The translations under genes were made by a program, and so were the position numbers. The notes beneath the pieces were generated by a model. It ran no database searches. It was not told the origin of the DNA and worked only from the letters and a program-made list of their open reading frames with translations. Source: Patescibacteria group bacterium (GTDB lineage Bacteria; Patescibacteriota; UBA1384; JBBRAU01). From it: 64,000 nucleotides of DNA. The stretch is taken from NCBI GenBank assembly GCA_038206475.1, contig JBBRAU010000001.1, positions 141,732-205,731 of the forward strand. The letters run 5' to 3'. Positions 8,830 to 45,766 of this stretch are shown here, piece by piece; position 1 is the first letter of the stretch, and the number at the start of each line of letters is the position of its first letter.

Positions 8830-10317
8830 ATGGGGCAAGAACATGGGCAACCTGGCCAGTCGATCTGGCGCGATCTACACCTGGACACAGCCGGTCTGGT
8901 TTTTGCGTTGGTTGTTTTTGCAGTTTCCGCCGGTCTCTTGCACCTGCACAAACCGGCTGCTTCCGCCGATGACCTAGCTGGCCAGGCCGTCGCCGACGTA
9001 AGCGTCAATCCAACCGCTGACTTTACGATTAACGCCCGTGGCCAGCTGCTCAAAAGCGCGGCCGCAACTGGCGTTCGCGTCCACCGCTACGCCAATCGCG
9101 ATGAGCTGCGCTTTATTTGGATCAATAACCCCGGAGAGCCACTGGCTGCGGCAATCGCCGTTTTCCATTTGCCCAGCGGCGTCGCCAGCAACCTCGCCAA
9201 GCCCGAGTTAATTACACGCGCCGTATATAGTAAGGAGACGAGCGTTGTAGACGCCCAGTCGCTTAGCTTCTCGGCCGAAGGAGTTGACCCGGTTGGCACC
9301 GTCACGGTGGTGATTACACTGCCGCGCGGCAGCATCAAGCTGCCGATGTCTGCCAAGCTGTACGACGAACTAGCGGGGGAGCCGGCGCTGCTGTGGGCGG
9401 ATGTCGGGCTGTTTATTTTAACTATTGGTGTGATGATGCTCATCTGGTTGTCACGTCGTCGAATGGTCGAGTGGCAGGCGCTGCGTCGGGCCGGAGCGGT
9501 GCAAACAACGCCGCCAGCCGCCTTGCCACCCGCCGTAGTCGGCGTCTTTATTCGACAAAAGTTTACCAGCCGAGAGATCATCGCCACGCTGATTGATTTA
9601 GCTGAACGCGGCTACCTGCGTTTTAGTGAGCAGCCGAGCGGCACGACCATTGTGCCGCGCAAGCTTGATCCTGTCGGTCTTTACCCGCATGAACGTGAGG
9701 TGATGCAACTGTTGCAGTCAAGTGACCGGCTGCTCAAAGGGCTGGACCGCGACGTCTTTGAGGCTGAATCCGGCCGCCTAGTCATTGCTATTTACCGGCT
9801 GGTTGAGCGACTCGGCATTTTTGCCCGCAGTCCTCGGTGGACGCACCTGCGCTGGCGGACTGGAGGCGCTTTAATTACCCTCGGTGGTGCCGTCGGGCTG
9901 CTGTTCACCCTCCGGTTGTTCCCGGACCCACCATACATTGCCCTCTTTTGGCTGGCCGTTACGCTGATTGGGATAATTATTTTTCGTCTTGGCAGCGGCT
10001 ATACCGCCTACAGTGAAACTGGCCGCGGCGCCCTGGGCGCATGGCTGGCTTTTGGCCGCTATTTGGCTAGTCCGCAGCCGGCGACCTTAGACGAGGTGTC
10101 GTACGGCAGTTTTGTCCATTTTCTGGCCTATGCTGTGGCGCTCGGTGTCGATGAGGCGTGGCTACAGCGTTTTCGTGACCTGCCGTTTCAGTCACCAGAT
10201 TGGTATACACCGCTCCAGCCAGGTGTTACGGCCGAGCAATTCTACCAAGGCTTGATCCGACCAGCCGCGACTATCGGCGCGGCCATTAGCCAATCGGTAC
10301 TGCCAACCGTTGATTAG
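8830..10317 (+). CDS. DUF2207-type membrane protein (predicted)
   Basis: Architecture is N-terminal TM/signal, a ~200-aa extracytoplasmic region, a TM, a cytoplasmic region, then two C-terminal TMs (ITLGGAVGLLFTL, IALFWLAVTLIGIIIF). ATG 8830 is the likely start (ORF track 8782). Confidence 0.5.
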   Translation: MGQEHGQPGQSIWRDLHLDTAGLVFALVVFAVSAGLLHLHKPAASADDLAGQAVADVSVNPTADFTINARGQLLKSAAATGVRVHRYANRDELRFIWINNPGEPLAAAIAVFHLPSGVASNLAKPELITRAVYSKETSVVDAQSLSFSAEGVDPVGTVTVVITLPRGSIKLPMSAKLYDELAGEPALLWADVGLFILTIGVMMLIWLSRRRMVEWQALRRAGAVQTTPPAALPPAVVGVFIRQKFTSREIIATLIDLAERGYLRFSEQPSGTTIVPRKLDPVGLYPHEREVMQLLQSSDRLLKGLDRDVFEAESGRLVIAIYRLVERLGIFARSPRWTHLRWRTGGALITLGGAVGLLFTLRLFPDPPYIALFWLAVTLIGIIIFRLGSGYTAYSETGRGALGAWLAFGRYLASPQPATLDEVSYGSFVHFLAYAVALGVDEAWLQRFRDLPFQSPDWYTPLQPGVTAEQFYQGLIRPAATIGAAISQSVLPTVD

Positions 10318-14125: not shown

Positions 14126-16282
14126 ATGGCGCTTGAATTCACTACCTATCAAGCTGAAGCGGCCATTGGCACCCGCACGCTCTCGTTTGAAACCGGCAAA
14201 TTGGCCGGTTTGGCTAACGGCTCCGTGACCGCCCGCTACGGCGACACGGTCATTCTGGTGACAACTGTCACAGCTAAAGAGCCGCGCGAAGGCGTTGATT
14301 TCTTTCCACTGACGGTTGATTACGAAGAGCGGCTGTACGCTGCTGGCAAAATCTCTGGATCGCGCTTCATTAAGCGTGAAAACCGACCATCAGAGGAGGC
14401 GATCTTAGCCGCTCGTCTGGTTGATCGGCCGCTGCGCCCACTCTTCCCAAAGTATTTTAGGAACGACGTCCAAATTATTATCACCGTCTTGTCGGCCGAC
14501 CTGGAGAATGATCCAGATATCATCGCGATTAACGCCGCCTCCATGTCACTGATGGCTGCTGGGGCGCCGTTTGACGGTCCAGTTGGCGCCGTCCGGGTTG
14601 GTTTGGACGTTGCCGGTCAATTTATCATTAATCCCACCCATGCTGAGCGCGCCACCGGCAAATTAGACCTCGTTGTCGCCGGCACCAAGGAGCGGGTGAT
14701 GATGCTTGAGGCTGGTGCCAGCGAGGTGCCTGAGGCCAAAGTGATGGAAGCAATCCGCTTCGGCCATGCTGAACTGCAGAAGGCGATTGTGCTGCAAGAA
14801 GAATTTGCCGCTATGCTACCGAAGACGGAGCGGGCCTTGCCGGAAATCGACCTGAACATTCATGAGCAGGTCAAAAGCTTTGTGGGTGACCGCTTGTCAG
14901 AGTTTTTGCGCACCGCTGACAAACTGGAACGCGAACGTCACATGGCTGATTTTGAGGCCGAAGTGTTGAAGAATTTCGAAGGTGACTTCAAGCAAATCGA
15001 TCTTAAATCAGCGCTTGAGAAATTGATTGAAAAAGAGGTGCGCCGGTTAATTTTGGTTGACGGCGTCCGGCCCGACGGTCGCAAAATTGACGAGATTCGG
15101 CCGCTGAACGTGCAATTGGCACTGCTGCCACGCACCCACGGCTCGGCACTGTTTACGCGCGGCCAAACCCAGGCCTTGACTATTGCTACACTCGGCTCGC
15201 CGGGTATGGAACAGACAGTTGAGACGATGGAGCAAGACGGTGCCAAGCGCTACATGCACCACTACAACTTTCCGCCGTACTCTACGGGTGAGACGAAACC
15301 GCTGCGGGGTGCCTCTCGCCGCGAGGTCGGCCACGGAGCACTGGCTGAGCGGGCACTCGTCCCGGTATTGCCGAAGCAGGAGCAGTTCCCGTACACTATC
15401 CGCCTTGTTTCAGAAATTCTTTCTTCAAACGGCTCTTCGTCAATGGCCGCCACCTGCGGCTCGACCTTGGCGTTGATGGATGCTGGCGTGCCAATCGCCC
15501 GGCCCGTGTCCGGTATCGCCATGGGTTTAGTGACCGAAGCTGGTCATGAGACCGAAAAATATACCATTCTGACTGACTTGCAGGGCCTTGAGGACTTTGC
15601 CGGTGACATGGACTTTAAGGTTGCCGGCACCACTGAAGGCATCACTGCCATTCAAATGGACACAAAAATTCACGGCTTGTCGCTCAAGATGGTTGAAGAG
15701 ACGCTTGAGCAAGCCGCCACCGGCCGCGCTGTCATTTTGCAGGCCATGACCAGTGTCATTGCCGAGCCGAGGGCCGACTTGTCGCCGTACGCGCCGCGTA
15801 TTACCTCAATTCAGATTCCGCCCGATAAAATCGGTACGGTTATTGGTCCGGGCGGCAAAATGATCCACAAGATTATTGAAGACGCCGGTGGCAAAGAGGT
15901 GATCACACTTGACATTGAAGAGGACGGCACAGTGCTTATCTCCTCAGTCGACCCGAAGGCGGCCAAAATTGCCGAAGAGATTATTTCCGGCTTAACCCGC
16001 GAGGTTAAGATTGGCGACATCTTTGACGGTGAGGTGGTGCAGATTATGCGCGACCGCATGTCTGGCAAAGAGATTGGCGCTATTGTCCAAATTTTGCCTA
16101 ACCAAGACGGTATGGTGCATATCTCTGAACTTGCCAACACTCGCGTTGATACAGTCTCATCGGTGGTCAAAGTCGGCGACAAAATACGTGTGCAGGTGGT
16201 TGATGTTGACCTGGACCGCGGCCGTATTTCGCTCTCCCGCCGCGCCTTGCTCGACCGTCCGACTGAAACTCAGCGCAGCTAA
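14126..16282 (+). CDS. pnp: polynucleotide phosphorylase
   Basis: 718 aa with two RNase PH domains, KH (IPPDKIGTVIGPGGKMI) and S1 domains. Conserved rpsO-pnp linkage. Confidence 0.95.
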   Translation: MALEFTTYQAEAAIGTRTLSFETGKLAGLANGSVTARYGDTVILVTTVTAKEPREGVDFFPLTVDYEERLYAAGKISGSRFIKRENRPSEEAILAARLVDRPLRPLFPKYFRNDVQIIITVLSADLENDPDIIAINAASMSLMAAGAPFDGPVGAVRVGLDVAGQFIINPTHAERATGKLDLVVAGTKERVMMLEAGASEVPEAKVMEAIRFGHAELQKAIVLQEEFAAMLPKTERALPEIDLNIHEQVKSFVGDRLSEFLRTADKLERERHMADFEAEVLKNFEGDFKQIDLKSALEKLIEKEVRRLILVDGVRPDGRKIDEIRPLNVQLALLPRTHGSALFTRGQTQALTIATLGSPGMEQTVETMEQDGAKRYMHHYNFPPYSTGETKPLRGASRREVGHGALAERALVPVLPKQEQFPYTIRLVSEILSSNGSSSMAATCGSTLALMDAGVPIARPVSGIAMGLVTEAGHETEKYTILTDLQGLEDFAGDMDFKVAGTTEGITAIQMDTKIHGLSLKMVEETLEQAATGRAVILQAMTSVIAEPRADLSPYAPRITSIQIPPDKIGTVIGPGGKMIHKIIEDAGGKEVITLDIEEDGTVLISSVDPKAAKIAEEIISGLTREVKIGDIFDGEVVQIMRDRMSGKEIGAIVQILPNQDGMVHISELANTRVDTVSSVVKVGDKIRVQVVDVDLDRGRISLSRRALLDRPTETQRS

Positions 16283-16959: not shown

Positions 16960-17134
16960 ACGCACCTTTTTGCCTGCGACGCTTGAGCGTTGGCAGCAAG
17001 GAGCGTTCACGGAGCGCAACCACCTTGAATTAATACCAGTAACGGCGACCTTGTCGCCACTATCATTGCGGGTTTTTGCCCGCAGCTACAACGCACTTGC
17101 CCGGAGGGGCATATTGCACAAGAAAGGAAACTGT

Positions 17135-19243
17135 ATGGTTGATCAATCAACCGCCCCAAGCAGCTCTCCAGCGGCCCCTGCGCCGACTGGGAGCCCGGAC
17201 GGAGGCCAACGCGGCCGCCGTCGCAATTACCGCAGTCGCAGTCGGTCTAACCCTGCGTCCGCAACAAGTGAGACGCCAATTGTGGCGGCTCACATCTCAA
17301 AAGACAGTCTTAAGGTAACAACTGCTGACGAGCAAGCCGGTAACCGCCGGCCAGCGCGCGGCAGTCGGACCTCGTCAGTTGGCAGCGAGAACGGCACAGG
17401 CCGTTCCAGCTACGCTGATCGCAGTGCCACCGCTCCGCACCGCGGTTTGCCCAATCGTCGCCGCCGAGTTGAAAAACAGAGCCTGTCTGACTACTCGCAA
17501 GGCTCATTTAATGCGGGCGAAGATCGTTTGAGTGTGGTTGGCAATAATGACCAACCGGCCGCCAAGCTTGGTCCAGCCGGCGAGACGCTAAGAATTATCC
17601 CACTTGGTGGTGTTGAAGAAATCGGCAAGAATATGACCGCCCTTGAGTGGGGCGACGACATCATCATTATTGACTGCGGCTTCATGTTCCCAGATCAGTC
17701 CATGCCAGGTGTTGATTATATTATTCCAGACGTAACCTATTTAGCGGAGCGCAAATCAAAAATCCGCGGCATGGTAATCACCCACGCCCATATGGATCAC
17801 ATTGGCGCCTTCCCGTACGTTTACGAGAAGCTGGGTACGCCACCGATTCATTCGGCGCCGATCACGCTCGCTTTCATTAAAAAGAAGCTTGAAGAGTTTG
17901 GTATTGATCAAAAAGCCCGCATGATTCCGTTCAACCCCGACCGCGATAAGTTACGGCTCGGCCGTTTTGAAATAGATGTCTTCCGCCTGACGCACTCGGC
18001 GCCAGACTCGGTGGGTGTGGCGGTTAAAACCCCGCATGGCCATATTGTCTACACGACTGACTGGAAATTTGATCACACGCCGGCGGACGGCAAACGGGCC
18101 GACTTTGCAACACTGGCCCGCCTCGGCGAAGAGGGTGTGCTAGCCCTGTTTTCCGACTCGACTAACATTGATAAGCCGGGCACCTCTATTTCAGAAGCAG
18201 AGGTTGGCCACGCCTTAAAAGAGGCGGTTGGTAACTGCCGCGGCCGTATCATTTTGGCTACCATGTCGTCGCTAATCACTCGTATCCAGCAGGTGTTGCA
18301 AGCCGCCGAGAAGCATGGCCGCAAGGTGGCCTTTGTCGGCCGCTCCATGGTCGATAACGTCGACATGGCTATTCAGCTCGGCAACATCATGCCGCCCAAA
18401 AACACCATCATCGACATTAACGACATCGGCCGCTATAGCGACGACCAGGTTTTGATTGTCACCACCGGCTCGCAGGGTGAGGAGTTGTCGGGCTTAACCC
18501 GCATCGCCCAAGGTGAACACCGCCAGGTCAAAATCAAGAGGGGCGATACTGTTATTCTGTCCGCCTCAGCCATCCCGGGCAACGAAAAAGCTATTCAGCA
18601 GATGATGGATGGCTTGGCCCGTGAAGGTGCCCGTGTCGTCAACAATAAAATGATGTCTATTCATACCTCGGGCCACGCTAACCGCGAAGACCTGAAGTTA
18701 ATGATTGCCCTGACTAAGCCGCAGTACTTTTTGCCGATTCACGGTGAGCGCTTTAAACTCATCATGCATGGTGAATTGGCTGTCGAAATGGGGGTTAAAC
18801 CGGAAAACATCTTGATTGGCGACAACGGCCAAGTAACCGAGTTCAAAAACGGCCAAGGCGCGGTTACGACGCAACGTGTTCCGGCAGGCTACGTCTTAGT
18901 CGACGGCCTCGGTATCGGCGACGTCGGCAACATTGTGCTGCGCGACCGCAAGATGATGGCCCAAGACGGCATCTTTGTCTCAATCATCACGGTGGACCAC
19001 CAGACCGGCAAGGTTCTGGCTAGCCCGGATATTATCTCCCGCGGCTTCGTTTACATGCGTGATAACGAAGACTTAATCGGCAAAACGAGAGACGAGATTA
19101 AGCGCATTCTGGAGGAGCAAACCAAGAAGACGCCGTTTGAGTGGAGTTGGGTTAAAAACGAGCTCAGAGACGGCCTGGAGCGCTTCCTGTTTGAACAGAC
19201 GCACCGCCGACCGATGGTTATCCCTGTTGTCATCGAAGTCTAG
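17135..19243 (+). CDS. rnj: ribonuclease J with ~190-aa Arg/Ser-rich low-complexity N-terminal extension
   Basis: MBL motif HAHMDHIG, beta-CASP and C-terminal domains after LRIIPLGGVEEIGKNM. AAAGGAAA sits 5 nt before ATG 17135 (ORF track 16970). Confidence 0.9.
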   Translation: MVDQSTAPSSSPAAPAPTGSPDGGQRGRRRNYRSRSRSNPASATSETPIVAAHISKDSLKVTTADEQAGNRRPARGSRTSSVGSENGTGRSSYADRSATAPHRGLPNRRRRVEKQSLSDYSQGSFNAGEDRLSVVGNNDQPAAKLGPAGETLRIIPLGGVEEIGKNMTALEWGDDIIIIDCGFMFPDQSMPGVDYIIPDVTYLAERKSKIRGMVITHAHMDHIGAFPYVYEKLGTPPIHSAPITLAFIKKKLEEFGIDQKARMIPFNPDRDKLRLGRFEIDVFRLTHSAPDSVGVAVKTPHGHIVYTTDWKFDHTPADGKRADFATLARLGEEGVLALFSDSTNIDKPGTSISEAEVGHALKEAVGNCRGRIILATMSSLITRIQQVLQAAEKHGRKVAFVGRSMVDNVDMAIQLGNIMPPKNTIIDINDIGRYSDDQVLIVTTGSQGEELSGLTRIAQGEHRQVKIKRGDTVILSASAIPGNEKAIQQMMDGLAREGARVVNNKMMSIHTSGHANREDLKLMIALTKPQYFLPIHGERFKLIMHGELAVEMGVKPENILIGDNGQVTEFKNGQGAVTTQRVPAGYVLVDGLGIGDVGNIVLRDRKMMAQDGIFVSIITVDHQTGKVLASPDIISRGFVYMRDNEDLIGKTRDEIKRILEEQTKKTPFEWSWVKNELRDGLERFLFEQTHRRPMVIPVVIEV

Positions 19244-20668: not shown

Positions 20669-22024
20669 GTGCTGAAGCTAACATTTGCTGGTGCTGCCGG
20701 CGAAGTCACCGGCAGCTGTCACCACCTGGCGACGCCTCACGGCAATCTACTCATTGACTGCGGCTTCTTTCAGGGTCGCCGCCTGGCTGAGGCCAAAAAC
20801 CACGACCCGTTTCCCTTCAACCCAGCCGAAGTGTCGGCGGTGTTGTTGACTCATGCTCATTTAGATCACGTCGGCCGTTTGCCGAAGCTAGTTGAAGAAG
20901 GTTTCCCGGGGCCAATTTACGCCACAGAAGCGACGGCTGAATTGGCCAAGCTGGTACTGCTAGATACGGTTGGCATTTTGGCCGAGCATGCCGAGCAAGA
21001 CGGCACCCTGCCTCTTTACGGTCGCGCTGATGTAGAGGCTACGCTCAAGCGCTTCAAGGCCATTCAGCTTGACGAGCCGTTTTCACCACTGCCGGCTGTA
21101 CGGGCGGCTGCTCGCGAGGCTGGCCATATTCTTGGTTCAGTCTTCTTTGAGCTGGAAGCTGACGGTAAACGGTTGGTGTTCTCCGGCGATCTCGGTAACG
21201 TGCCTTCGCCGCTGCTGAACCCCTCGACAGAACCAGTGCAAGGCCACGTGGTGGTCATAGAGTCCACTTACGGCGGTAAAACGCATGAGGCAGCCGAGAG
21301 CCGTCTAAAAACGGTGCATACGGCACTGGATCAGATTATTGCCAAGCGCGGCACACTCTTAATTCCGGCCTTTGCCATTGAGCGCACCCAAGAGCTACTG
21401 TTTTTCATTGACGCCCTGGCTCGCCACCGCGAAATTCGGGCGTTGCCGGTCTTCTTGGACAGCCCGCTAGCGATTGAAGTGACCAATATCTATAAGCGCT
21501 TCCCCGGTTTATTTCAGCCAAAAATTGCCGAGGAGCTGAAACACGGCAGCGATCCCTTCAACTTTCCTTTTCTCAAAATGACGCGCTCGGTGCAGGCCTC
21601 GCGCCAAATCAACCACATTCCCGGCCCCAAAGTAGTGATTGCCGGCGCTGGCATGATGGAGGGCGGACGTATTCACCACCACTTAATTCGGCACCTCGAC
21701 GAAGAAACGACCACGCTGCTAATAGTCGGTTTTCAGTCGCCTGGCACCTTGGGGAGGGAGATCGCCGACGGCGCCAAGCAAGTAGAGCTGGAAGGCCAGC
21801 CAGTTAAAGTACGCGCTCAGGTTGAGCAGGTGCAGGCCTTTTCCGCGCACGCAGATGAACCGCAACTACTGCACTTTTTGTCGGCGCTGAAGGCACCGCC
21901 TGAGCACTTATTTACCGTTCATGGCGAGCCAGAGAGCAGTCAAGCGCTTCTGTTGGCGATCAAAAAAGCTCACGGCTGGAGCGGCCTGGCACCGAAACTT
22001 GGCCAGACCGTTTCGCTCGACTAA
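20669..22024 (+). CDS. MBL-fold beta-CASP metallo-hydrolase (RNA-metabolising, CPSF/RNase J-like)
   Basis: LLTHAHLDHVG motif 2, beta-CASP motifs (FSGDLG, SAHAD). GTG start lies 5 nt after the upstream stop. Confidence 0.8.
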   Translation: MLKLTFAGAAGEVTGSCHHLATPHGNLLIDCGFFQGRRLAEAKNHDPFPFNPAEVSAVLLTHAHLDHVGRLPKLVEEGFPGPIYATEATAELAKLVLLDTVGILAEHAEQDGTLPLYGRADVEATLKRFKAIQLDEPFSPLPAVRAAAREAGHILGSVFFELEADGKRLVFSGDLGNVPSPLLNPSTEPVQGHVVVIESTYGGKTHEAAESRLKTVHTALDQIIAKRGTLLIPAFAIERTQELLFFIDALARHREIRALPVFLDSPLAIEVTNIYKRFPGLFQPKIAEELKHGSDPFNFPFLKMTRSVQASRQINHIPGPKVVIAGAGMMEGGRIHHHLIRHLDEETTTLLIVGFQSPGTLGREIADGAKQVELEGQPVKVRAQVEQVQAFSAHADEPQLLHFLSALKAPPEHLFTVHGEPESSQALLLAIKKAHGWSGLAPKLGQTVSLD

Positions 22025-23094: not shown

Positions 23095-24544
23095 GGACGT
23101 AGACCACCGTGCCGACATCGGTCCAATCATACAGTTGGGCGGCATTGGCATCAGTGAGGCGAATGCAGCCGTGCGAAACCGGTGTACCAATGTGACCGGC
23201 GCCTTCTTTGGCGCCGCTTGGCCACTCAGGCAAAGCGTGCAAACCGTAAGAGCTGCCGATAAACGGCATCCAATATGGCATATAGAGGCCGAAGGTCGCC
23301 GAATAGGCGCGGACTGATTTGCCATCCTGAACGTGGAAGACGCCAATTGGCGTCGGTGTTGACCATTTGCCGGTCGAAACGCCAGCTGACAGAAACTGTT
23401 GATCACCATCCCAGGCAATAAGCTGCTGCGATGACAGGTCAACTTCAATGTATTTACCGGGATAAAGGCCAGGGGTAAACGCTGGCGTAATCTTTTTTAC
23501 CCCGGCAGCAACTGCTCTGACGGTCACTTGGGCCGAGGAAGTTGTTTGGTAGCTGTCGGTTAGTGCTTTACTGATGGCGGCAAAGGTGGCGTCGCGGTCA
23601 ATTTTACTGCCGTCTCGGCCCTCTTTCTGAACTGCTCCAGTGAGGGTATTCACTTCGCGGGCGACGGCCGGTCGCTCAACGTGCTCGGCGATTGTGTCCA
23701 GACTGCGATTGACGGCGTCTTGATCGATGGCCAGGTTGAGGATTTTGTCCTGGCGGGTGACGACTAGCCACTTCAGAATGTCTAGGCTGTCTACTTGATA
23801 GGTTTGGCTGCCGACCTGCAGCTGGAGTGGTGCACTACTCCACAGCTTCATTTCATCAGCCACACGGTTGGCCTCATCCGTGCTGACGCCGGGCGATTCA
23901 TCAGAGTAGTGCAGCACAATGGGCTGCTCTAGTTGGTTGCTACTCAGCGTTTTCAAGAGGTCGGCTTTAGTCTGGTCCACATCAATATGCTTGCCGGTTT
24001 TGGCTGGCACAACAATAACTTGGCCGTTTTTGCTGCTGACAGCGGCATCTTGAGCGGTGGTTTGAGCTGTTTTTAAGCTTGTAGCCACGGCGTTGGCAAA
24101 TTGGCCGCCGTCGAGCTGCCAGTGCAATGGGTCGTGGTTTGGCCAGATCAGTCCGGCCAGCATTTCGCTGAGGCTGTCCCAAAAGGCGCTGTGGTGGCCG
24201 GACTGCCAGCTCTGGCTAACGGCGCCGGCAATATCGAGGCTGGCGCCAAGTTCCGTTACGGGCATCGCGGCTAGAAAGCTTGCGCCATCGCTAAAATGGG
24301 CTGACTGCTGTTCAAGGTAGCTCTTAGCCGCGACCAATTTGTCACGTGCCTCGCGGCGGGTCAGGCCAGCCACCGAGATGCCGCCGATAGATGTCCGCGG
24401 CAAAAAGCGGTGGGCGTAGCTCTCGTGGTAGCCAACCAACAGTAAAATAACAAAGGCCGCCGTGAAGAAGGCCAACAAACCGGACCGGATGGCCAGGTGT
24501 AGCCGATGACGTGGTTTCGGCGGATTAATTGACATTTTTATCAT
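23087..24544 (-). CDS. L,D-transpeptidase (YkuD domain) with N-terminal TM and VanW-like/peptidoglycan-binding region
   Basis: C-terminal catalytic motif GVFHV...GTPVSHGCIRL. N-terminal TM (LLAFFTAAFVILLLVGY) followed by a VanW-like segment. Confidence 0.8.
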   Translation of the reverse strand: MIKMSINPPKPRHRLHLAIRSGLLAFFTAAFVILLLVGYHESYAHRFLPRTSIGGISVAGLTRREARDKLVAAKSYLEQQSAHFSDGASFLAAMPVTELGASLDIAGAVSQSWQSGHHSAFWDSLSEMLAGLIWPNHDPLHWQLDGGQFANAVATSLKTAQTTAQDAAVSSKNGQVIVVPAKTGKHIDVDQTKADLLKTLSSNQLEQPIVLHYSDESPGVSTDEANRVADEMKLWSSAPLQLQVGSQTYQVDSLDILKWLVVTRQDKILNLAIDQDAVNRSLDTIAEHVERPAVAREVNTLTGAVQKEGRDGSKIDRDATFAAISKALTDSYQTTSSAQVTVRAVAAGVKKITPAFTPGLYPGKYIEVDLSSQQLIAWDGDQQFLSAGVSTGKWSTPTPIGVFHVQDGKSVRAYSATFGLYMPYWMPFIGSSYGLHALPEWPSGAKEGAGHIGTPVSHGCIRLTDANAAQLYDWTDVGTVVYVHA

Positions 24545-24742
24545 TTTTCACAATTATTTTGATAGGGTCTGTTTTTTTCTATCGTACAGACAATCACCGA
24601 CCAGTAAAATGGGTGCGTAAGAACCTGCTCCTTCGGAACAGAACCTTTTCACTTGACGCTCCTGATAGCTCACTGGTTTGACGGGTAGGCTTACCACGCC
24701 AGTGGCAAGCCTTTGCAATAGATTTGCAGAATTGATGAACAC

Positions 24743-24818
24743 GGGTGCGTAGCTCAGTGGTTAGAGCAGACGGCTTATATCCGTCCGGTCCTAGGTTCGA
24801 TCCCTAGCGCACCCACCA
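24743..24818 (+). tRNA. tRNA-Ile, anticodon UAU (genomic TAT)
   Basis: Hand fold: acceptor GGGTGCG/CGCACCC, D-arm GCTC-AGTGGTTA-GAGC, anticodon stem GACGG/CCGTC, loop CTTATAT (T33, A37), T-arm CTAGG-TTCGATC-CCTAG, encoded CCA. Confidence 0.8.
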
Positions 24819-24969
24819 GCCACATACCCACATTGGTGTGTGGACATGTGACTGGTGTAGGAGATAGATCGAACCGGCAAGCGTAGTTTGCTTGGTGAGA
24901 GCCCATGAGACGAACAACGTGAGTCGCAAGGTTCTGCTGCGCAGCAGCAGGTTCTTTGCGCACCCACCA
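24807..24969 (+). repeat. direct 12-nt repeat GCGCACCCACCA (tRNA-Ile 3' end, 24807-24818, and copy at 24958-24969) flanking a 139-nt hairpin-rich segment
   Basis: Exact 12-mer occurs twice. The intervening segment contains the palindromes GCAAGCgtagtttGCTTGg and CTGCTGCGCAGCAG. Confidence 0.7.
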
Positions 24970-25187
24970 ACGATCATCTAAAGATGCGTGCCTTACGATC
25001 TTCTAAATCAGTATAATGCCATTGTCGCACTTGGTGGTGACGTCTCGCCTGAAAGCGGGCTTAATCCACAAGCTCAGAAGTGTGTTGAGAAAAGCACTGG
25101 AAGGGGGTAGGTAGCTGGGATGTAGACTAGGCATAGCCAAGAAATCCAATAACCATGACTTGCGAAAGTGAAAAAATAAGCATGATC

Positions 25188-25213
25188 AAAAACACCGGCT
25201 AGCCGGTGTTTTT
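25188..25213. terminator. bidirectional rho-independent terminator
   Basis: aaaaaCACCGGCtaGCCGGTGttttt. Perfect 7-bp stem flanked by an A-run and a T-run, 22 nt downstream of the minus-strand small gene 25235..25492. Confidence 0.75.
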
Positions 25214-25234
25214 GAATGTTGTGATCGGGGGCGG

Positions 25235-29461: not shown

Positions 29462-31056
29462 GCGGCTTTTTGCTTGGCTAAGGCGGCAGCAACCAGCCCC
29501 AAAAAGAGGGGATGCGGCCGGGTCGGCCGCGACAGGAACTCCGGATGCGACTGTGTGGCTAAAAAGTAGGGATGGCCGGGCAATTCAATTAGCTCGGCCA
29601 AATCGCCATCGGGCGATAAGCCGGACAAGACCAGGCCTGTTCCCTCCAGCTGTTTATGGTAAGCCGGGTTGACTTCGTAGCGGTGACGATGGCGCTCCCA
29701 AATTTTAGATTGACCAAATAGCTCGGCGGCTTGGCTGCCGGCTTTCAGCCGAGCTTGGTAGGTGCCGAGGCGCAGGGTGCCGCCCAGCTCAGTGACATGG
29801 CGTTGATCTGGCAGGTAATCAACGACCGGCTGGGTCGTTTTTGGATCGAACTCGCTCGAGTTAGCATCCGTCAGGCCCGCTAAATCACGCGCGACTTCAA
29901 TCACCGCGCACTGCAGCCCAAGACAAATGCCGAGGAAGGGAATATTGTGCTCGCGGGCGTAGCGAATGGCCGTAATTTTACCCTCAATCCCGCGAATGCC
30001 AAAGCCGCCCGGTACCAAAATACCGTCGACCAGTTGAATCTGTTTGGGCAGCCGCCTGCCTTCAGCATCAATCGAGACAATTTGAACTTTGGCGTCGAGA
30101 GCCGCCCCGGCATGGCGCAGCGCCTCAGAAACCGATAAATAGGCATCAGGGTGGTCGAGGTATTTGCCGACCATGCCAATAGTTATGGTTTTTTTCAGGT
30201 GAGTGACGCGTCGAACCAGCTGCTTCCACTCGGAGAGGTTGCTCTTGCGACTCTTGAGTCCTAGTCGCTTCAAAACAACACGGGCTACGTGCTGCCGCTC
30301 CAAGTTAAGGGGCACTTCGTACAGGCTGTTAACGTCCAGTGCCTCGACGACATTCTCGTCGGCGATGCCGCCAAAGAGAGCGATTTTCTCACGCTCGGCG
30401 GCGGTCAGCGGCCGCTTGCAGCGCACTATCAACATATCGGGTACGATGCCGTAGCTCCTGAGCATGGCAACAGACTGCTGTATCGGCTTCGTTTTGCCTT
30501 CATCTGACGGGTAAATGTAATCCATTTTGACTACGTGGACGAACATGGCATTATGGCGTCCTACTTCCAGCGCATACTGGCGAATGGCCTCAATAAACGG
30601 CAGGGCTTCAAGGTCGCCGACGGTGCCGCCAACTTCGGCGATTAAAATATCTGGCTGATACTTCTCAATCGGCAGGCCCAGGCGTCGTTTAATTTCACCC
30701 GTGACGTGTGGCACCACCTGGATGGTTTTGCCGAGGTAGTCGCCTCGCCGCTCCTGCTCCATCAAGGTGCGGTAGACTGCGCCGGTGGTAAAATTGGACA
30801 GTTTAGTCAAAGCAATGTCCATGAACCGTTCGTAGTGGCCAAGGTCAAGGTCGGTTTCGGCGCCGTCGTCCGTCACAAATACCTCGCCGTGCTGAAACGG
30901 GTTCATGGTGCCAGCGTCTTCGTTTAAATACGGGTCGGCCTTAATTGGAATGACCGAAAAACCCTTATATTTTAAAAGCGCGCCAAGTGAAGCGACCGTA
31001 ATTCCTTTACCAATACCGGAGACAACGCCGCCGGTGACGAAAATGGTTTTGGCCAT
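29458..31056 (-). CDS. pyrG: CTP synthase
   Basis: MAKTIFVTGGVVSGIGKGI N-terminus. GATase triad region (GICLGLQ...H..H). Confidence 0.95.
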   Translation of the reverse strand: MAKTIFVTGGVVSGIGKGITVASLGALLKYKGFSVIPIKADPYLNEDAGTMNPFQHGEVFVTDDGAETDLDLGHYERFMDIALTKLSNFTTGAVYRTLMEQERRGDYLGKTIQVVPHVTGEIKRRLGLPIEKYQPDILIAEVGGTVGDLEALPFIEAIRQYALEVGRHNAMFVHVVKMDYIYPSDEGKTKPIQQSVAMLRSYGIVPDMLIVRCKRPLTAAEREKIALFGGIADENVVEALDVNSLYEVPLNLERQHVARVVLKRLGLKSRKSNLSEWKQLVRRVTHLKKTITIGMVGKYLDHPDAYLSVSEALRHAGAALDAKVQIVSIDAEGRRLPKQIQLVDGILVPGGFGIRGIEGKITAIRYAREHNIPFLGICLGLQCAVIEVARDLAGLTDANSSEFDPKTTQPVVDYLPDQRHVTELGGTLRLGTYQARLKAGSQAAELFGQSKIWERHRHRYEVNPAYHKQLEGTGLVLSGLSPDGDLAELIELPGHPYFLATQSHPEFLSRPTRPHPLFLGLVAAALAKQKAA

Positions 31057-31139
31057 ATGCTGCCTTTCGGTGTTTTTCCAACTTTACAAAAAGATGGCCC
31101 GGCTGGCCACCTGTTCTTTTTGCCGATTTCTGGTTTGGC

Positions 31140-31263
31140 AAGAACGTTACCAATTTCTTTGAAAATTGGTAAGAACCTGGCCTACGGCCAGAACCTTGCC
31201 AGCTGCTTCGCATCTGGTAAGAACCTGGCCAACTGCTTCGCATCTGGTAGCGGGGGTTGGACA
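31140..31263 (+). repeat. structured short-repeat family, copies pre-R1/R1/R2, plus a 19-nt duplicate of the tRNA-fMet 3' end (31245-31263)
   Basis: R1 31168-31200 is GGTAAG-AAC-CTGGCCtacGGCCAG-AAC-CTTGCC. R2 31216-31243 is a deletion variant. Before R1 sits ggcaagaacGTTACCAATttctttgaaaATTGGTAAgaacc. Each unit is preceded by cttcgcatCTGGTA, which matches the complement of the tRNA-fMet 3' end. Confidence 0.7.
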
Positions 31264-31439
31264 GACCCCTGGCGCGTCCGCCAGCCGGCGGACTTGCCGG
31301 GTACCCCCACACGCTTCGCCTGTCTAGCGGCAGACAGGCGTGTGACCGAACCAAGCTGCGCTTGATTCGGTCACACAACCCAATTACCAGAGAAGTGCCC
31401 ATCTTGCGATGAACACTTCTCTGGTAGCGGGGGTTGGAC
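31245..31439 (+). repeat. 19-nt direct repeat CTGGTAGCGGGGGTTGGAC (31245-31263 and 31421-31439) bounding a 157-nt segment with three perfect 8-11-bp hairpins
   Basis: The second copy is the 3' end of tRNA-fMet on the minus strand. Internal hairpins are GCCTGTCTagcggcAGACAGGC, GTGTGACCGAA...TTCGGTCACAC and CCAGAGAAGTG...CACTTCTCTGG. Confidence 0.7.
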
Positions 31440-31497
31440 TCGAACCAACGACCTCCAGCTTATGAGGCTGACGAGCTAACCACTGCTCCACCCCGCT
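31422..31497 (-). tRNA. tRNA-Met (CAU), initiator-like (A11:U24), with a paired A1-U72
   Basis: Minus-strand fold: AGCGGGG-TG-GAGC-AGTGGTTA-GCTC-G-TCAGC-CTCATAA-GCTGG-AGGTC-GTTGG-TTCGAGT-CCAAC-CCCCGCT-A-CCA. Very close to the bacterial tRNA-fMet consensus, except for 1-72 paired and only two G-C pairs in the lower anticodon stem. Confidence 0.8.
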
Positions 31498-31629
31498 ATA
31501 TGCGTGCACAACTTTAACTACTACTCGAATGAATCGAGCTTATATTAGTATACCATTTCTTATTTATGACGTCAATGTCAGAAGATGGCAGAAATGCCAT
31601 AAATATGCTAAAAATATAAGTGGACAGTT

Positions 31630-31742
31630 CATTTGCGCCAGGGTAAGAACTTCGCACTGCGTGCGAAAACCTTGCCCCAGCTCACTTCGTTCGCCAGGGT
31701 AACAACCTGAAGCTTCGCTTCAGAACGTTGCCCTGACCTTCA
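31630..31742 (+). repeat. structured short-repeat family, copies R3/R4, abutting the 5' end of tRNA-Met (plus)
   Basis: R3 31637-31676 is GCCAGGGTAAG-AAC-TTCGCACtgcGTGCGAA-AAC-CTTGCC. R4 31693-31733 is GCCAGGGTAAC-AAC-CTGAAGCttcGCTTCAG-AAC-GTTGCC. The outer boxes carry a compensatory G/C change and the inner stems differ entirely. GCCAGGGTA equals the first 9 nt of the adjacent tRNA. Confidence 0.7.
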
Positions 31743-31820
31743 GCCAGGGTAGCTCAGTTGGTTAGAGCGCGTCACTCATAACGACGAGGTTCGTGGGTTC
31801 GATCCCCACCCCTGGCACCA
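31743..31820 (+). tRNA. tRNA with CAU anticodon, elongator type (tRNA-Met, or tRNA-Ile2 if lysidinylated)
   Basis: GCCAGGG-TA-GCTC-AGTTGGTTA-GAGC-G-CGTCA-CTCATAA-CGACG-AGGTTC-GTGGG-TTCGATC-CCCAC-CCCTGGC-A-CCA. C11:G24 is elongator-type and 1-72 is paired. Confidence 0.75.
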
Positions 31821-31827
31821 AAATTAC

Positions 31828-32037
31828 ATGATGATATTGAATTTCCGAGCTACTGTTGAACGGAATTGCCAGATAAGCGCCGAGGAAAATGCCTATCTGG
31901 CGTATGTTCCCGATCTTGGGGTAGCGACTGATGGTGATACAGCGAAAGAAGTTCTGATAAGTATTCAAGAGATTGCAAGCATGTTCCTTCAAAGTCTGCG
32001 ACAAGACGGCTTAGTTGTGCCAAAGCCAGCCTTATGA
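31828..32037 (+). CDS. HicB-like / UPF0150 family small protein (antitoxin-type N-terminal domain only, 69 aa)
   Basis: AYLAYVPDLGVATDGDTAKEVLISIQEIASMFLQSLRQDGLVVPKP matches the HicB N-domain pattern (Y.A.VPDLPGC.T.G.T.EEAL.N..EAI). Its stop overlaps the lepA ATG (ATGA). Confidence 0.5.
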   Translation: MMILNFRATVERNCQISAEENAYLAYVPDLGVATDGDTAKEVLISIQEIASMFLQSLRQDGLVVPKPAL

Positions 32038-33851
32038 TCCAAGCTAATATTCGTAATTTTTGTATTATTGCCCACGTTGACCATGGTAAATCGACCCTGG
32101 CCGACCGTATGTTAGAGCTGACCAAAACGGTTGAGATGCGCGAGATGAAAGAGCAGCTGCTTGATCAAATGGACTTAGAGCGCGAGCGCGGTATTACTAT
32201 TAAGTTGCAACCAGTACGCATGCAGTGGCAAGGCGTCGAGATGAACTTAATTGACACGCCGGGACACGTTGATTTTGCCTATGAAGTTAGCCGCTCACTG
32301 GCGGCGGTTGAAGGCGCGGTTCTGTTGGTCGACGCCAGCCAAGGAATTCAAGCTCAAACGCTGGCCAATTTGCGCTTTGCCCGTGAGCATAATTTAGTCA
32401 TTATTCCGGTCATGAATAAAATTGACTTGCCCTCGGCCCGGCCAGAGGAGGTGGCGCTGCAGGTCAAAGAGCTGCTGCAGTGCACCGACGACGACATTCT
32501 GTTTGCCTCTGGCAAAACTGGCGAGGGTGTAACCGATATCTTAGATGCGGTCATTGCCCGCATTCCGGCCCCAAGCGGCCAAGCCGACGCCGCACCGCGA
32601 GCGCTCATTTTTGACTCAATTTACGATCCGTATCGCGGCGTCGTTATTTACGTACGCGTGGCAGACGGCCGGTTGCAAAAAGGAGATCGGGTACGTTTCT
32701 TGGCCACGAAGCGTGAGGCGCAGGTACTGGAAGTTGGCAGTTTCCGACCCAGTTTTCAGCCGGAGGCGGCGCTTGAGAGCGGCGAAATTGGCTATGTGAT
32801 TACCGATGTCAAAGCCGTCCGCGAGGCGCGGGTAGGGGACACACTGGCCCTGTCTGGCAAAGGTGGGGAGACAACGGCCTTGCCGGGCTACCGTGAGCCG
32901 CTGCCGATGGTTTACGCCGGCCTCTACCCGGCCCAAGGCGAGGCTTCAGCCAAGCTGCGCGATGCACTTGACCGTCTGAAATTGCAAGACGCCTCATTGT
33001 CGTTTGAGCCAGAATTTTCGCCAGCCTTAGGCTTCGGTTTTCGGGCCGGCTTTTTAGGTATGCTGCACCTGGATATTGTCCGTGAGCGTTTAGAGCGTCA
33101 CTTTGACCTTGACCTCATCATCACCACGCCGTCAGTGCCGGTTGAGGTGGTGCTATCGAGTGGGGAGGAGCGGATTATCCAGCGCGCCTCAGAGCTACCG
33201 AGCTCCAACGACCCCAGCTCGCGGCTGGGTCAGTTATCGATGGGGGAGATAGTTGAGTTGCGTGAGCCATGGGTGGCGGTTACGATTTTGACGCCAGAGC
33301 AGGGGATGGGCGGCGTGCTGGAGCTTTTGACTGGCCGACGGGGAATTCTTAAAAACGTCGCGCATTCTGGCTCTGGCACAGTCACGCTTGAAACCGAGGC
33401 TCCCCTACTCGGCGTCATTGTTGATTTCGCCGATAAGTTAAAAAGCTTAACCCAAGGCTACGCCTCATTTGACTATCATTTCATTGGTTTTCGGGCGGCT
33501 CCCCTCGCCCGCCTCGACGTTTTGATCGCCTCAGAGCCGGTTGACGCGCTAGCCCAAATTGTCCATAGAGACGAAGCCAAAGCCATTGGTGAACGCATTG
33601 TGACTAAATTGAAAGAGGCAATCCCTCGTCAGCAGTTTGTCATTAAACTGCAGGCGGCCATTGGCGCGACAATTGTTGCCCGCGAAGATATTCCAGCGGT
33701 TGGCAAAAACGTTACCGCGAAGCTCTATGGCGGCGACGTGACGCGTAAAAATAAACTGCTGGATAAGCAGAAAAAGGGTAAAAAGCGGCTGCAGCAAATT
33801 GGCAAAGTGGCTGTGCCAAATGAAGCTTTCTTGGCACTCCTGAGCCGGTAA
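32034..33851 (+). CDS. lepA: elongation factor 4 (LepA)
   Basis: G1 IIAHVDHGKSTL, G3 DTPGHVDF and the LepA-specific C-terminal domain. 605 aa. Confidence 0.95.
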   Translation: MIQANIRNFCIIAHVDHGKSTLADRMLELTKTVEMREMKEQLLDQMDLERERGITIKLQPVRMQWQGVEMNLIDTPGHVDFAYEVSRSLAAVEGAVLLVDASQGIQAQTLANLRFAREHNLVIIPVMNKIDLPSARPEEVALQVKELLQCTDDDILFASGKTGEGVTDILDAVIARIPAPSGQADAAPRALIFDSIYDPYRGVVIYVRVADGRLQKGDRVRFLATKREAQVLEVGSFRPSFQPEAALESGEIGYVITDVKAVREARVGDTLALSGKGGETTALPGYREPLPMVYAGLYPAQGEASAKLRDALDRLKLQDASLSFEPEFSPALGFGFRAGFLGMLHLDIVRERLERHFDLDLIITTPSVPVEVVLSSGEERIIQRASELPSSNDPSSRLGQLSMGEIVELREPWVAVTILTPEQGMGGVLELLTGRRGILKNVAHSGSGTVTLETEAPLLGVIVDFADKLKSLTQGYASFDYHFIGFRAAPLARLDVLIASEPVDALAQIVHRDEAKAIGERIVTKLKEAIPRQQFVIKLQAAIGATIVAREDIPAVGKNVTAKLYGGDVTRKNKLLDKQKKGKKRLQQIGKVAVPNEAFLALLSR

Positions 33852-33904
33852 TTTGACTAATCCAAACATGGGGGGTAGATTAAGGATAAGATTAAAGGAG
33901 GCAT

Positions 33905-34507
33905 ATGTTACAACGTGGCGCACTTCCCCGCCCTGGGTTTACTTTGATTGAGCTATTGGTAGTGATTGGTATCATTGCTATTTTAACGGCGCTCTTAGTG
34001 CCGACGATTACTAATGCCCGCAAACGGGCCACAGCCGGCGTGGCAGTTAACCAGTTAGTAAAGAACTGTGAAGCAGCTAAAAATTATTACGTTGGCGGCG
34101 GCGATATTACGCAATACTTCCAAGATATCGATCGCACAGGCTTGCCTGGCTACAATGCATCAACCACAAGTAGTACTGTTGGAGCTGTAAATCAGTCTTT
34201 CGTTCAAGGTGGACCAACAACTGGGTACTCAAATCAGTGGCAGTTATTTTCCTTTGGACCTCCAGCGAACACCTCGATCGCAACAAACTTTCCCAAATCA
34301 GATCAAGCCATTCAGTTGTACGCATACGATTGGACTAGCGGTGCGGCTGACAAATGGTTGCACGCTTACGATGGTTTAACTGTCGGTAGCTACAAGTTAG
34401 GCACAAACCATGCCGCTATTGCATGTGGCCTCTCAGCTGATGCGAGTCAACCCATTCTTTATTATTATTACAATAATGGCGATTCGCCTTGGCCGAAATT
34501 ACCCTAG
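33905..34507 (+). CDS. type IV pilin-like protein (prepilin-type N-terminal cleavage/methylation domain), paralog 1
   Basis: Leader MLQRGALPRPG then [30 protein letters not shown], a class III signal with hydrophobic helix. Variable C-terminal domain. AAAGGAGG lies upstream. Confidence 0.85.
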   Translation: MLQRGALPRPGFTLIELLVVIGIIAILTALLVPTITNARKRATAGVAVNQLVKNCEAAKNYYVGGGDITQYFQDIDRTGLPGYNASTTSSTVGAVNQSFVQGGPTTGYSNQWQLFSFGPPANTSIATNFPKSDQAIQLYAYDWTSGAADKWLHAYDGLTVGSYKLGTNHAAIACGLSADASQPILYYYYNNGDSPWPKLP

Positions 34508-34519
34508 TGTGATTGATTC

Positions 34520-34544
34520 AAAAAGCGCCTGACGGCGCTTTTTG
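34520..34544. terminator. bidirectional rho-independent terminator (pilin gene on plus, tRNA-Lys on minus)
   Basis: aaaaaGCGCCtgacGGCGCttttt. Confidence 0.75.
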
Positions 34545-34558
34545 AATGTCTTCATGCA

Positions 34559-34634
34559 TGGTGGGCCCATTGGGACTTGAACCCAAAACAAACGGCTTAA
34601 AAGGCCGCTGCTCTACCAATTGAGCTATAGGCCC
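34559..34634 (-). tRNA. tRNA-Lys (UUU)
   Basis: Minus-strand fold: GGGCCTA-TA-GCTC-AATTGGTA-GAGC-A-GCGGC-CTTTTAA-GCCGT-TTGTT-TTGGG-TTCAAGT-CCCAA-TGGGCCC-A-CCA. Confidence 0.85.
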
Positions 34635-44083: not shown

Positions 44084-45049
44084 ATGCCACGGCTGCGTCG
44101 TAATCCTTTAACCGGCGACTGGATTATCCTCTCGCCCGAGCGAGCCAAGCGGCCGGAAGAGTACGTCCGTCCGCGCCAGCAGGCTATTTCCGACCCGGCA
44201 GATTGTCCATTTTGCCCAACCGGGCCAGCCTATGCCACGAAGATTGCTGAAACCGAGCATACCTACGTTATCCCTAACCGTTACCCAGCCTTTGTGCCTG
44301 ATGACCAGGTCGTCAGTGATGGCGGCCGCCTGGCGGAAAGTGGTTTGGCGCTTGGCCGGCATGAGGTGATCGTGCGTAAATCGCACACTGAACATTTATT
44401 TGATCTGCCGCCCTCGAGGCTGCATGAGTTGCTTCAGGTATCGGCTAGCCGTCTGGTCAGCGCTAAGCGTGATCCGCGTTTAGAGTATGGCCTGGTTTTT
44501 CACAACCACGGCCATGAAGCCGGCAGCTCAGTTGCCCATCCGCACAGTCAGATGATCGCGGCTGCCTTTGTGCCACCACGGCTGCAAAATCTCATTCGCG
44601 AGCAGAAAATGTTTTACGCTGAGCACCAGCACTGTCTGCTCTGCCGGCTCTGGCAAGCGGAAGCCGAATCGAGGGTACGGGTATTAGCGGAGTCACAGCA
44701 CGCTATCGCCTTTTTGCCTTATGCCAGTCGCTATCCGTATGAAATCTGGTTGGTGCCAAAGCGCCATGCCGCTCATTTTGAGGAAATTGCTGAACATGAG
44801 CTAGCCGGTGTGGCTAGCCTGTTGCACATCGTCTTTAAAACCTTGAAAAGTGCCCTCGATGATCCGCCCATCAATTGGGCAGTTTACAGCAAGCCATTTC
44901 GGCCGCGCATCGGCAACGAAGCCTGGCATTGGTATTTAGAAATTATGCCGCGGCTTGAACACTTCGGTGGCTTTGAGCTGGCCACTGGCGCCATTATCAA
45001 TACGCTCTCGCCGGAGCATGCCACGACCTATTTGCGCAGCAAACGCTAG
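44084..45049 (+). CDS. galT: galactose-1-phosphate uridylyltransferase-like HIT-family nucleotidyltransferase
   Basis: Zn site CPFCP and HIT-like AHPHSQMIA (HxHxQ). Confidence 0.65.
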   Translation: MPRLRRNPLTGDWIILSPERAKRPEEYVRPRQQAISDPADCPFCPTGPAYATKIAETEHTYVIPNRYPAFVPDDQVVSDGGRLAESGLALGRHEVIVRKSHTEHLFDLPPSRLHELLQVSASRLVSAKRDPRLEYGLVFHNHGHEAGSSVAHPHSQMIAAAFVPPRLQNLIREQKMFYAEHQHCLLCRLWQAEAESRVRVLAESQHAIAFLPYASRYPYEIWLVPKRHAAHFEEIAEHELAGVASLLHIVFKTLKSALDDPPINWAVYSKPFRPRIGNEAWHWYLEIMPRLEHFGGFELATGAIINTLSPEHATTYLRSKR

Positions 45050-45756: not shown

Positions 45757-45766
45757 CCTTGCCTGC

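Follow-up and report, generated by a model that had tools for sequence, protein, structure and literature searches.

Three of the four tRNA genes in the 64,000-nucleotide stretch of a Patescibacteria group bacterium analyzed here (contig JBBRAU010000001.1, positions 141,732 to 205,731; hereafter the window, numbered from its first letter) are flanked by copies of their own ends, and each of these copies, at 5' and 3' ends alike, is fused to one hairpin module of about 35 nt. A first-pass annotation had noticed two of the copied 3' ends, at a tRNA-Ile and a tRNA-Met gene, and had read them as scars of integrative elements or as the work of a small element family. We propose instead that the units formed by copy and module are cis-acting RNA elements of tRNA precursors, which would mimic the acceptor stem of their tRNA or pair with it, and we put the probability of this reading, built from sequence comparison, at about 45%. 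We rank it first, a DNA repeat second and neutral duplication through microhomology third. The RNA reading is favored because modules lie mainly upstream of tRNAs in the sense orientation, because they sit just past predicted start sites or between clustered tRNAs, because their stems covary and keep a wobble pair, and above all because the copies follow acceptor-stem substitutions from one organism to another.

On its own strand the module has the consensus R-UAAG / AAC / CUG-stem-loop-CAG / AAC / CUUG-C. The outer stem, R-UAAG/CUUG-C, contains a conserved U-G wobble and is followed by a symmetric 3x3 AAC/AAC internal loop; the inner stem begins with CUG/CAG and is otherwise free in sequence, yet always paired. 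A K-turn was considered for the GA-containing internal loop and rejected, since by our reasoning the geometry is wrong, with bulges 3' of the GA on both strands. The GAACC of the module could pair with the universal T-arm GGUUC, to which it is complementary. A covariance model built from the module (R1), run on the window with filters off, returned five strong sites, all of them in its training set, and nothing else above 12 bits; all five flank three of the four tRNAs, as do the exact matches to the motif, and their inner stems differ from one another. R1 found no module at the fourth window tRNA, a tRNA-Lys.

The module is not confined to the window. A scan of JGI metagenomes for the exact pattern AAGAACCTG N6-24 CAGAACCTTGC, which fixes 20 nt, gave at least 120 loci (comparison loci are denoted by L and a number), and the inner segment is self-complementary in 75 of the 127 pattern matches listed, where our arithmetic predicts about 18 by chance. 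R1 applied to the listed metagenome loci produced 125 and 27 matches, including copies outside the pattern. In an alignment of 101 distinct sequences the inner stem is made up of all four kinds of Watson-Crick pair and hardly ever has an unpaired cell, and 81 of the sequences retain the outer U-G wobble; alignment A1 was chosen for inner pairing, and the flank pairs, which lie outside R1, are unselected. Within one genome, module copies carry different inner stems, like a functional RNA motif and unlike the products of recent transposition. Some modules stand upstream of unrelated protein genes or form 36-nt tandem arrays. Exact arrays of 36-nt period stand upstream of protein genes at L097 (240–308), L111 (1124–1228), L116 (3906–3974), L138 (11096–11164) and L142 (11794–11862); overall, tandem repeats of 30, 36 and 73 nt are found. 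Rfam 15 placed no family on the modules, whether in the window, taken up to E = 10, or in 20 module loci at the gathering threshold; only tRNAs reached that threshold, and permissive thresholds added only noise over modules and inserts. Neither Rfam 15 nor the literature searched by full text yielded a description of the motif, and other literature might hold one.

One carrier, L099, has pyrimidine synthesis genes and a ValRS nearest to those of Christensenellaceae and other Clostridia. Since L099 resembles Christensenellaceae (Bacillota) and the window Patescibacteria, the module appears, on these gene affinities, to span at least two phyla. At 537–1838 in L099 a XerC-like tyrosine recombinase gene adjoins a tRNA-Pro/tRNA-Met/tRNA-Tyr cluster with modules in its spacers.

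How tightly is the module bound to tRNAs? Around 47 non-redundant tRNAs from the listed loci and the window, modules within 200 nt are sense and upstream in 22 cases, antisense and upstream in 2, sense and downstream in 2 (both being the leader of the next tRNA) and antisense and downstream in 3. In the listed loci, modules near tRNAs mostly lie 12–30 nt upstream on the same strand, and their lower stem replicates the acceptor stem. In 16 of 20 units from outside the window, the 12 nt to the left of the module include a match of 6 nt or more to the 5' part of their own tRNA; permuted pairings of unit and tRNA gave a mean of 2.0 and a maximum of 7, and none of 5000 permutations reached 16. The copy ends after tRNA position 9 or in the D-loop, and the right and left flanks pair with each other above the level of permuted flanks. 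Where the same tRNA differs between two organisms, the unit differs with it: tRNA-Pro(CGG) has G5-C68 in L094 and C5-G68 in L144, and the leader hairpin is swapped likewise; A1-U72 and U1-A72 in tRNA-Ile(GAU) of L140 and L160 are mirrored in the leader unit, as are U6 and C6 in tRNA-Gln(UUG) of L096 and L130. The unit begins 4–7 nt past the start site predicted from sigma-70-like hexamers in L130, L144 and L160, and units also stand between clustered tRNAs in L096 and L099. Duplicated 3' ends recur as well: in L110 a copy of 19 nt lies 67 nt downstream, in L191 one of 21 nt lies 140 nt downstream, and L167 has a mirror-image unit with a degenerate 3' copy. A second recurrent motif, similar to YTCGCTTCGCTC, lies between module and tRNA in L110, L160, L145, L140, L200 and the window (31679–31692); a like sequence forms the 11–13-nt loop of a module subclass (L083, L103, L126).

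The tRNA loci of the window, in which ARAGORN and Rfam found four tRNAs over the 64 kb, contain the following features (MetA and MetB are the two tRNA-Met genes).

24529–24557, plus strand: sigma-70-like promoter candidate, TTGACA-17-AATTAT, predicted start about 24565 (consensus match only).
24611–24619, plus: upstream copy of tRNA-Ile positions 1–9 (GGGTGCGTA), fused to the module (sequence comparison).
24615–24651, plus: tRNA-Ile leader module, sense, GUAAG/AAC/CUGCUCC-UUCG-GAACAG/AAC/CUUUU (R1 34.7 bits, E 4e-8, in training set).
24743–24818, plus: tRNA-Ile, anticodon UAU, encoded CCA (ARAGORN, Rfam).
24819–24957, plus: insert I, 139 nt, between the tRNA-Ile end and its copy (folding, similarity search).
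24924–24960, minus: mirror-orientation module pointing into the tRNA-Ile 3' end (R1 36.9 bits; arm complementary to the leader module).
24958–24969, plus: downstream copy of tRNA-Ile positions 65–76 (GCGCACCCACCA; exact repeat).
25186–25215, no strand: perfect 30-nt palindrome TCAAAAACACCGGCT/AGCCGGTGTTTTTGA between convergent transcription units, which we infer to be a likely bidirectional terminator ending the tRNA-Ile transcript.
31092–31112, minus: terminator-like hairpin closing the MetA trailer, with the pyrG start codon (31056) 36 nt further on (sequence).
31138–31249, plus: module-unit array on the strand opposite to MetA (repeats; R1 46.8 bits at 31167–31201).
31243–31262, minus: distal copy of the last 18 nt of MetA plus 2 nt of trailer (exact repeat).
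31263–31419, minus: insert S, 157 nt, four hairpins (folding; no relatives found).
31422–31497, minus: MetA, tRNA-Met(CAU), not initiator-like (ARAGORN, Rfam, sequence).
31547–31575, minus: MetA promoter-like site, TTGACG-17-TG-TATACT (consensus match).
31637–31677, plus: MetB leader unit 1, copy of positions 1–9 (31637–31645) and module (31641–31677; R1 37.5 bits).
31693–31735, plus: MetB leader unit 2, copy of positions 1–9 (31693–31701) and module (31697–31733; R1 40.5 bits).
31743–31820, plus: MetB, second tRNA-Met(CAU) (ARAGORN, Rfam).
34559–34634, minus: tRNA-Lys(UUU), plain terminator 3', no module (ARAGORN, Rfam).

The Ile repeat is as first annotated: the last 12 nt of the tRNA (24807–24818) recur exactly 139 nt further on. 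The Met repeat is equally real; it is 20 nt long and not 19 (TCTGGTAGCGGGGGTTGGAC, 31243–31262 and 31420–31439), and the first copy, earlier given as 31245–31263, was off by 1–2 nt. The label tRNA-fMet lacks support. Bacterial initiator tRNAs are typically marked by a C1xA72 mismatch and three G-C pairs in the anticodon stem; ARAGORN gives Met(CAU), and MetA has A1-U72 and the anticodon stem UCAGC/GCUGG, so that with neither hallmark present an initiator is not supported. That a similar architecture recurs at unrelated tRNAs proved right, and it extends to 5' ends: the copy of tRNA-Ile positions 1–9 lies 132 nt upstream of the gene, and positions 1–9 of MetB (GCCAGGGTA) occur twice upstream of it. 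Units upstream of tRNA-Ile and MetB share the strand of the tRNA; those downstream of tRNA-Ile and MetA lie on the other strand, directed into the tRNA 3' end. In both, the tRNA-end copy is distal to the module. Unit 2 of MetB lies 7 nt upstream of the tRNA, and its 3' flank CCCUG supplies the second strand of an acceptor-like stem. The array beyond MetA consists of a long-stem unit (31138–31182), the canonical module (31167–31201) and a truncated unit (31215–31230), includes a 30-nt tandem repeat (31190–31219/31220–31249), and has its units preceded by TGGTA, the reverse complement of the tRNA terminal UACCA. The downstream copies resemble internally deleted tRNA 3' parts (AGGTTC...GCGCACCCACCA and GGTTCT-TACCAGA). 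In the tRNA-Ile leader, 28 nt at 24666–24693 are 75% identical to the D-arm/anticodon-stem region of the tRNA (24750–24777) and may be the remnant of a partial copy.

These loci can be compared with those of L204 (GCA_041890195.1), whose LepA is 60% identical to that of the window and which keeps the gene order L,D-transpeptidase, tRNA-Ile(UAU), fn3 protein, MetA and MetB, LepA, tRNA-Lys and DnaJ/DnaK/GrpE. In L204, R1 found no module, and there are no tRNA-end copies. Its tRNA-Ile has a terminator directly 3' and its MetB a plain AT-rich leader, and its MetA orthologue (9492–9716, minus strand), missed by ARAGORN, has a group I intron in the anticodon loop (RF00028, 66 bits) with a terminator at its end; the window MetA has no intron. 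Since L204 lacks them, units and inserts are lineage-specific additions and not an ancestral spacer; a conserved spacer was what the first-pass annotation had named as fatal to its reading. Insertion and gradual evolution are not distinguished at the evolutionary distance of L204. tRNA-Ile with a UAU anticodon is rare in bacteria; its conservation at the syntenic site of L204 (4814–4888) suggests a lineage that reads AUA codons without the help of lysidine.

In the common form, which lies in the 5' leader, the tRNA strand reads as a copy of the first 6–21 nt of the tRNA, the module, a strand complementary to the copy, a short C/U-rich linker and the tRNA, so that the predicted leader fold is a hairpin with a replica of the acceptor stem of its tRNA at the base. 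In the window, the unit upstream of tRNA-Ile and the two upstream of MetB have this form, and the elements downstream of tRNA-Ile and MetA are a rarer mirror image, with the 3'-end copy beyond a structured trailer. If the units act as RNA, the acceptor-stem replica would be a mimic or would offer the acceptor strands of the tRNA another partner to pair with, and the invariant AAC/AAC internal loop would be a handle for a factor. Folding and end processing, by RNase P at the 5' end and by trimming at the 3' end, would in this way be guided or gated. The comparisons show the anatomy, its conservation, the covarying stems, the bias toward sense and upstream, the copies that follow acceptor-stem substitutions and the lack of units in a syntenic relative; action as RNA, processing as the target and each step of this scheme are inferred from these. 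A stronger version, in which a natural RNA device used across phyla fuses a sensor or handle hairpin with the AAC/AAC loop to a replica of the acceptor stem of the downstream tRNA and gates folding or RNase P and 3'-end processing, we hold to be improbable.

The inserts were annotated as hairpin-rich and free of open reading frames (ORFs), and this holds: z-scores are strongly negative and only short overlapping ORFs are present. Both fold better on the tRNA-sense strand (insert I, -50.7 versus -42.8 kcal/mol; insert S, -91.4 versus -77.8 kcal/mol, with more G-U pairs on the sense strand in the predicted fold), which we count for the RNA reading. The first hairpin of insert S (31385–31426) pairs with the UACCA end of MetA itself. 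At tRNA-Ile the leader unit is complementary to the trailer unit, and their predicted pairing (z = -6.8), which we also count for the RNA reading, would close a domain of about 360 nt with a helix of about 38 bp ending in GGGUGCG/CGCACCC-ACCA. By sequence, the outer part of this helix, GGGUGCG-UAAGAACC / GGUUCUUU-G-CGCACCC-ACCA, could form a 7-bp acceptor-like helix extended to about 11–12 bp with a single-stranded 3' NCCA, the features that a minihelix-type substrate of RNase P would have; leader units of other loci have no NCCA. An acceptor-like helix of GUGGGGGU, inside insert S, with the distal Met copy was predicted and set aside as not significant alone (z = -1.4). Specific co-evolution of the Ile leader and trailer modules is likewise not supported, their inner segments sharing 13 of 17 positions compared with 6–12 for other module pairs.

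Several points weigh against an RNA function. Its support comes from sequence throughout. The conservation and covariation are partly circular, given a pattern that fixed 20 nt and an alignment picked for inner pairing; the flank pairs, outside R1 and unselected, still pair above chance. A strand-symmetric rule holds in the window and in L167: the module points at a tRNA gene, and its left flank is a copy of the closest end of that gene. This fits a process at the DNA level better than an RNA leader function. Downstream of MetA, the U-G wobble of the canonical module falls on the non-tRNA strand, and MetA has no leader unit to pair with its 3' copy. The complementarity of Ile leader and trailer is largely automatic for two oppositely oriented modules, as the count of shared inner positions indicates. 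The presence of modules upstream of unrelated protein genes and in 36-nt arrays means that the module is not tRNA-specific, and the unit is dispensable, because L204 has none.

What else might place a copied tRNA end beside one hairpin? A selfish or recombination-driven DNA repeat is the most serious competitor, possible though in our judgment doubtful. The hairpin would serve as the site that a trans-acting single-strand transposase or recombinase recognizes (REP, IS200/IS605-like), or as a foldback element, and would land at tRNA-gene ends in either orientation and copy or duplicate the adjacent target. Such an element would account for the copy of the nearest end being always distal to the module in the window and in L167, for the inverted modules that bracket tRNA-Ile like terminal inverted repeats, for the same 20 nt in a Christensenellaceae-like Bacillota locus and a Patescibacteria-like genome, for the lack of units at the orthologous sites of L204 and for tandem expansions; the junctions at GTA|G are also reminiscent of the GTAG of REP elements. 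It fits poorly with the lack of target-site duplications and of true terminal inverted repeats, the conserved arms being direct and the flanks mutually complementary, and a cut-and-paste MITE was rejected because of the same two lacks (the arms, AAGAACC ... AGAACCTT, are directly repeated, the flanks complementary and not direct, and the copies 5–21 nt long). Copies in the same genome vary in the inner stem yet stay paired, the bias toward sense and upstream is strong, and different organisms share the unit at the same tRNA types, with a copy that follows tRNA substitutions. Repeats of 6–18 nt would seem too short to undergo gene conversion. The 39 window ORFs scanned yielded no transposase or recombinase, and the module pattern had no match in 2.9 million viral contigs. 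The small element family at tRNA 3' ends envisaged in the first-pass annotation came nearer to the evidence than scars did; it stressed the wrong end and leaves acceptor-stem tracking unexplained. Neutral duplication is, to us, an unlikely source. Here the module would have another role, for instance as a general 5'-leader hairpin, and the end copies would arise by microhomology-mediated duplication or replication slippage, through matches of the module (GTAAGAAC, GAACC) with tRNA G7-U8-A9-G10, the D-loop GGTAG and the antisense T-loop GAACC, with stems extended by template switching. The junctions do coincide with two tRNA sites at which GTA-G is shared with the module start (after position 9, or in the D-loop), the downstream copies do read like internally deleted tRNA 3' parts, and 30-, 36- and 73-nt tandem repeats exist; the complementarity of the right flank to the copy in most units, the copies that follow acceptor-stem substitutions between organisms and the copy present in 16 of 20 tRNA-proximal units are left unexplained.

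The attL/attR scars of tRNA-targeting integrative elements that have lost their cargo, the explanation first offered, now seem very unlikely. The direct repeats of the tRNA 3' end are real, the Met repeat spans the T-loop to 2 nt past the CCA, as the classical integrase sites span a tRNA gene from T-loop to past CCA, the inserts are missing from the syntenic relative, and L099 has a tyrosine recombinase beside a tRNA cluster. Set against this, Pfam found no integrase in the 39 window ORFs, and the inserts, of 139–157 nt, have no cargo, ORF remnant, composition shift or phage match. The copied 5' ends at 24611–24619, 31637–31645 and 31693–31701 could not have been produced by crossover at a 3' att site, all copies abut one constant module found mostly in leaders, and in other genomes there are tiny inserts of 48–119 nt, unexpected from random decay of large elements. 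Integrase scars would account only for the 3' repeats and the empty site, and are an unlikely explanation of the whole. Chance repeats or an assembly artefact are hardly credible. Stray exact 12-mers do occur elsewhere in the window. Exact matches to GCCAGAACCTTGC (19007 and 47384) and to GCCAGGGTAGC (45433) lie inside ORFs with no module structure and were put down to chance. The tRNA-end copies have specific positions, four independent ones stand beside modules, and the same architecture is found in unrelated metagenomes. By our arithmetic a second copy is expected at about 300/4^12 = 2e-5 per tRNA for a 12-mer and about 3e-10 for a 20-mer, negligible as first claimed, and no comparable end copy was seen at 13 tRNAs of unrelated control loci, a small control. 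The Met repeat is also not peculiar to one assembly, an independent Logan assembly (L202, SRR19962014) being 100% identical over window positions 30844–34617.

The surroundings of these tRNAs are those of an ordinary chromosome, with FtsH, MurJ, PolA, PNPase, RNase J, CTP synthase, LepA, DnaK/DnaJ/GrpE, ComEC, RuvC and others, and Pfam detected no integrase, transposase or reverse transcriptase among the 39 ORFs across the 64-kb window. The nearest named relatives of its pyrG and LepA are in Patescibacteria (Doudnabacteria, Berkelbacteria) at about 60% identity, matches that suggest a place in the Candidate Phyla Radiation. A scan of genome contigs with the pyrG protein was saturated by universal peptide patterns, returned relatives of at most 58% identity and serves as a small control set only; L081, with a pyrG 73% identical to that of the window, has no tRNA nearby. 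Inserts I and S share nothing beyond generic hairpins, are unremarkable in GC content and composition, had no match in phage records (megablast, 20 kb), and are unlike the group I intron of L204 and all compared loci except for the module part of insert I. The terminator-like hairpin at 31112–31092 (minus strand) may be an attenuator in the pyrG leader, or pyrG may be reached by read-through of the tRNA transcript; pyrG is missing from the corresponding position in L204. Two RNase J/beta-CASP-type ribonucleases (16970–19243 and 20669–22024) and PNPase (14126–16282) cluster within a few kb of tRNA-Ile. Five consecutive ORFs with no Pfam match (45046–50615) are followed by an ORF of 2738 aa (50707–58923).

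Should the units act as RNA, bacterial tRNA precursors from at least two phyla would come with a built-in replica of their acceptor stem attached to an invariant hairpin, which would point to an unrecognized factor or a conformational checkpoint in tRNA maturation and would add a compact, widespread motif missing from Rfam. If they are a DNA repeat, they would form a small element of a new kind, one aimed at the ends of tRNA genes that copies its target with no recombinase nearby, and the ghost tRNA ends it leaves could be mistaken for att sites and give false calls of genomic islands. Either way, duplication of a tRNA 3' end alone is no evidence of an integrated element.

None of the nearest concepts, whether att duplications, REP elements, leader-trailer stems, tRNA mimics or the RNase P riboswitch, fits fully. 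With the attL/attR sites that tyrosine integrases of phages and islands produce, the units have in common that an intact tRNA gene is followed by a direct repeat of its 3' end and that the site is empty in a relative; they differ in the lack of integrase and cargo, in small inserts structured on the tRNA-sense strand, in the 5' copies and in the fusion to a module. REP/BIME elements, which have RAYT transposases related to IS200/IS605, are likewise short intergenic imperfect hairpins with a conserved 5' motif (GTAG there, GTAAG here) that form inverted pairs and tandem arrays with no target-site duplication. Unlike these, the window modules stand only at tRNA flanks, strongly sense upstream, with arms direct around a free hairpin and flanks that copy the tRNA; within the 64 kb there is no REP-like scattering, the five modules being all at tRNA loci, and no RAYT (Y1 transposase) among the 39 scanned ORFs. 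TIGR arrays, common in the Candidate Phyla Radiation, have 36-nt units in which two conserved segments of 8–12 nt alternate with short variable ones (PMC12045711). The 36-nt tandem length and the alternation of conserved and variable parts recall TIGR-Tas; this identification was rejected, since the variable segments are self-complementary and not spacers, box C/D is lacking, no Tas (Nop-domain) gene is adjacent, with no match to the Nop domain in the window, and most units are single and beside tRNAs.

The tRNA mimics, such as the thrS operator, the tRNA-like domains of Y RNA and viral tRNA-like structures, resemble the proposed elements in that a non-tRNA RNA reproduces part of a tRNA for tRNA-binding factors; here only the acceptor stem would be reproduced, that of the tRNA just downstream, in cis and within its own precursor. 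In rRNA leader-trailer stems and in pre-tRNA leader pairing, the flanks pair either mutually or with the acceptor region and could thereby control the access of processing enzymes, and pairing of the flanking leader of a pre-tRNA modulates RNase P (PMC9433436). What differs here is that the flanking helix copies the acceptor stem and that an invariant AAC/AAC loop recurs across phyla. A synthetic RNase P riboswitch has been made by man (PMC7897497), and should the device proposed across phyla prove true, it would be the natural counterpart of that engineered switch and a new layer of tRNA-specific control, in the Candidate Phyla Radiation among others.

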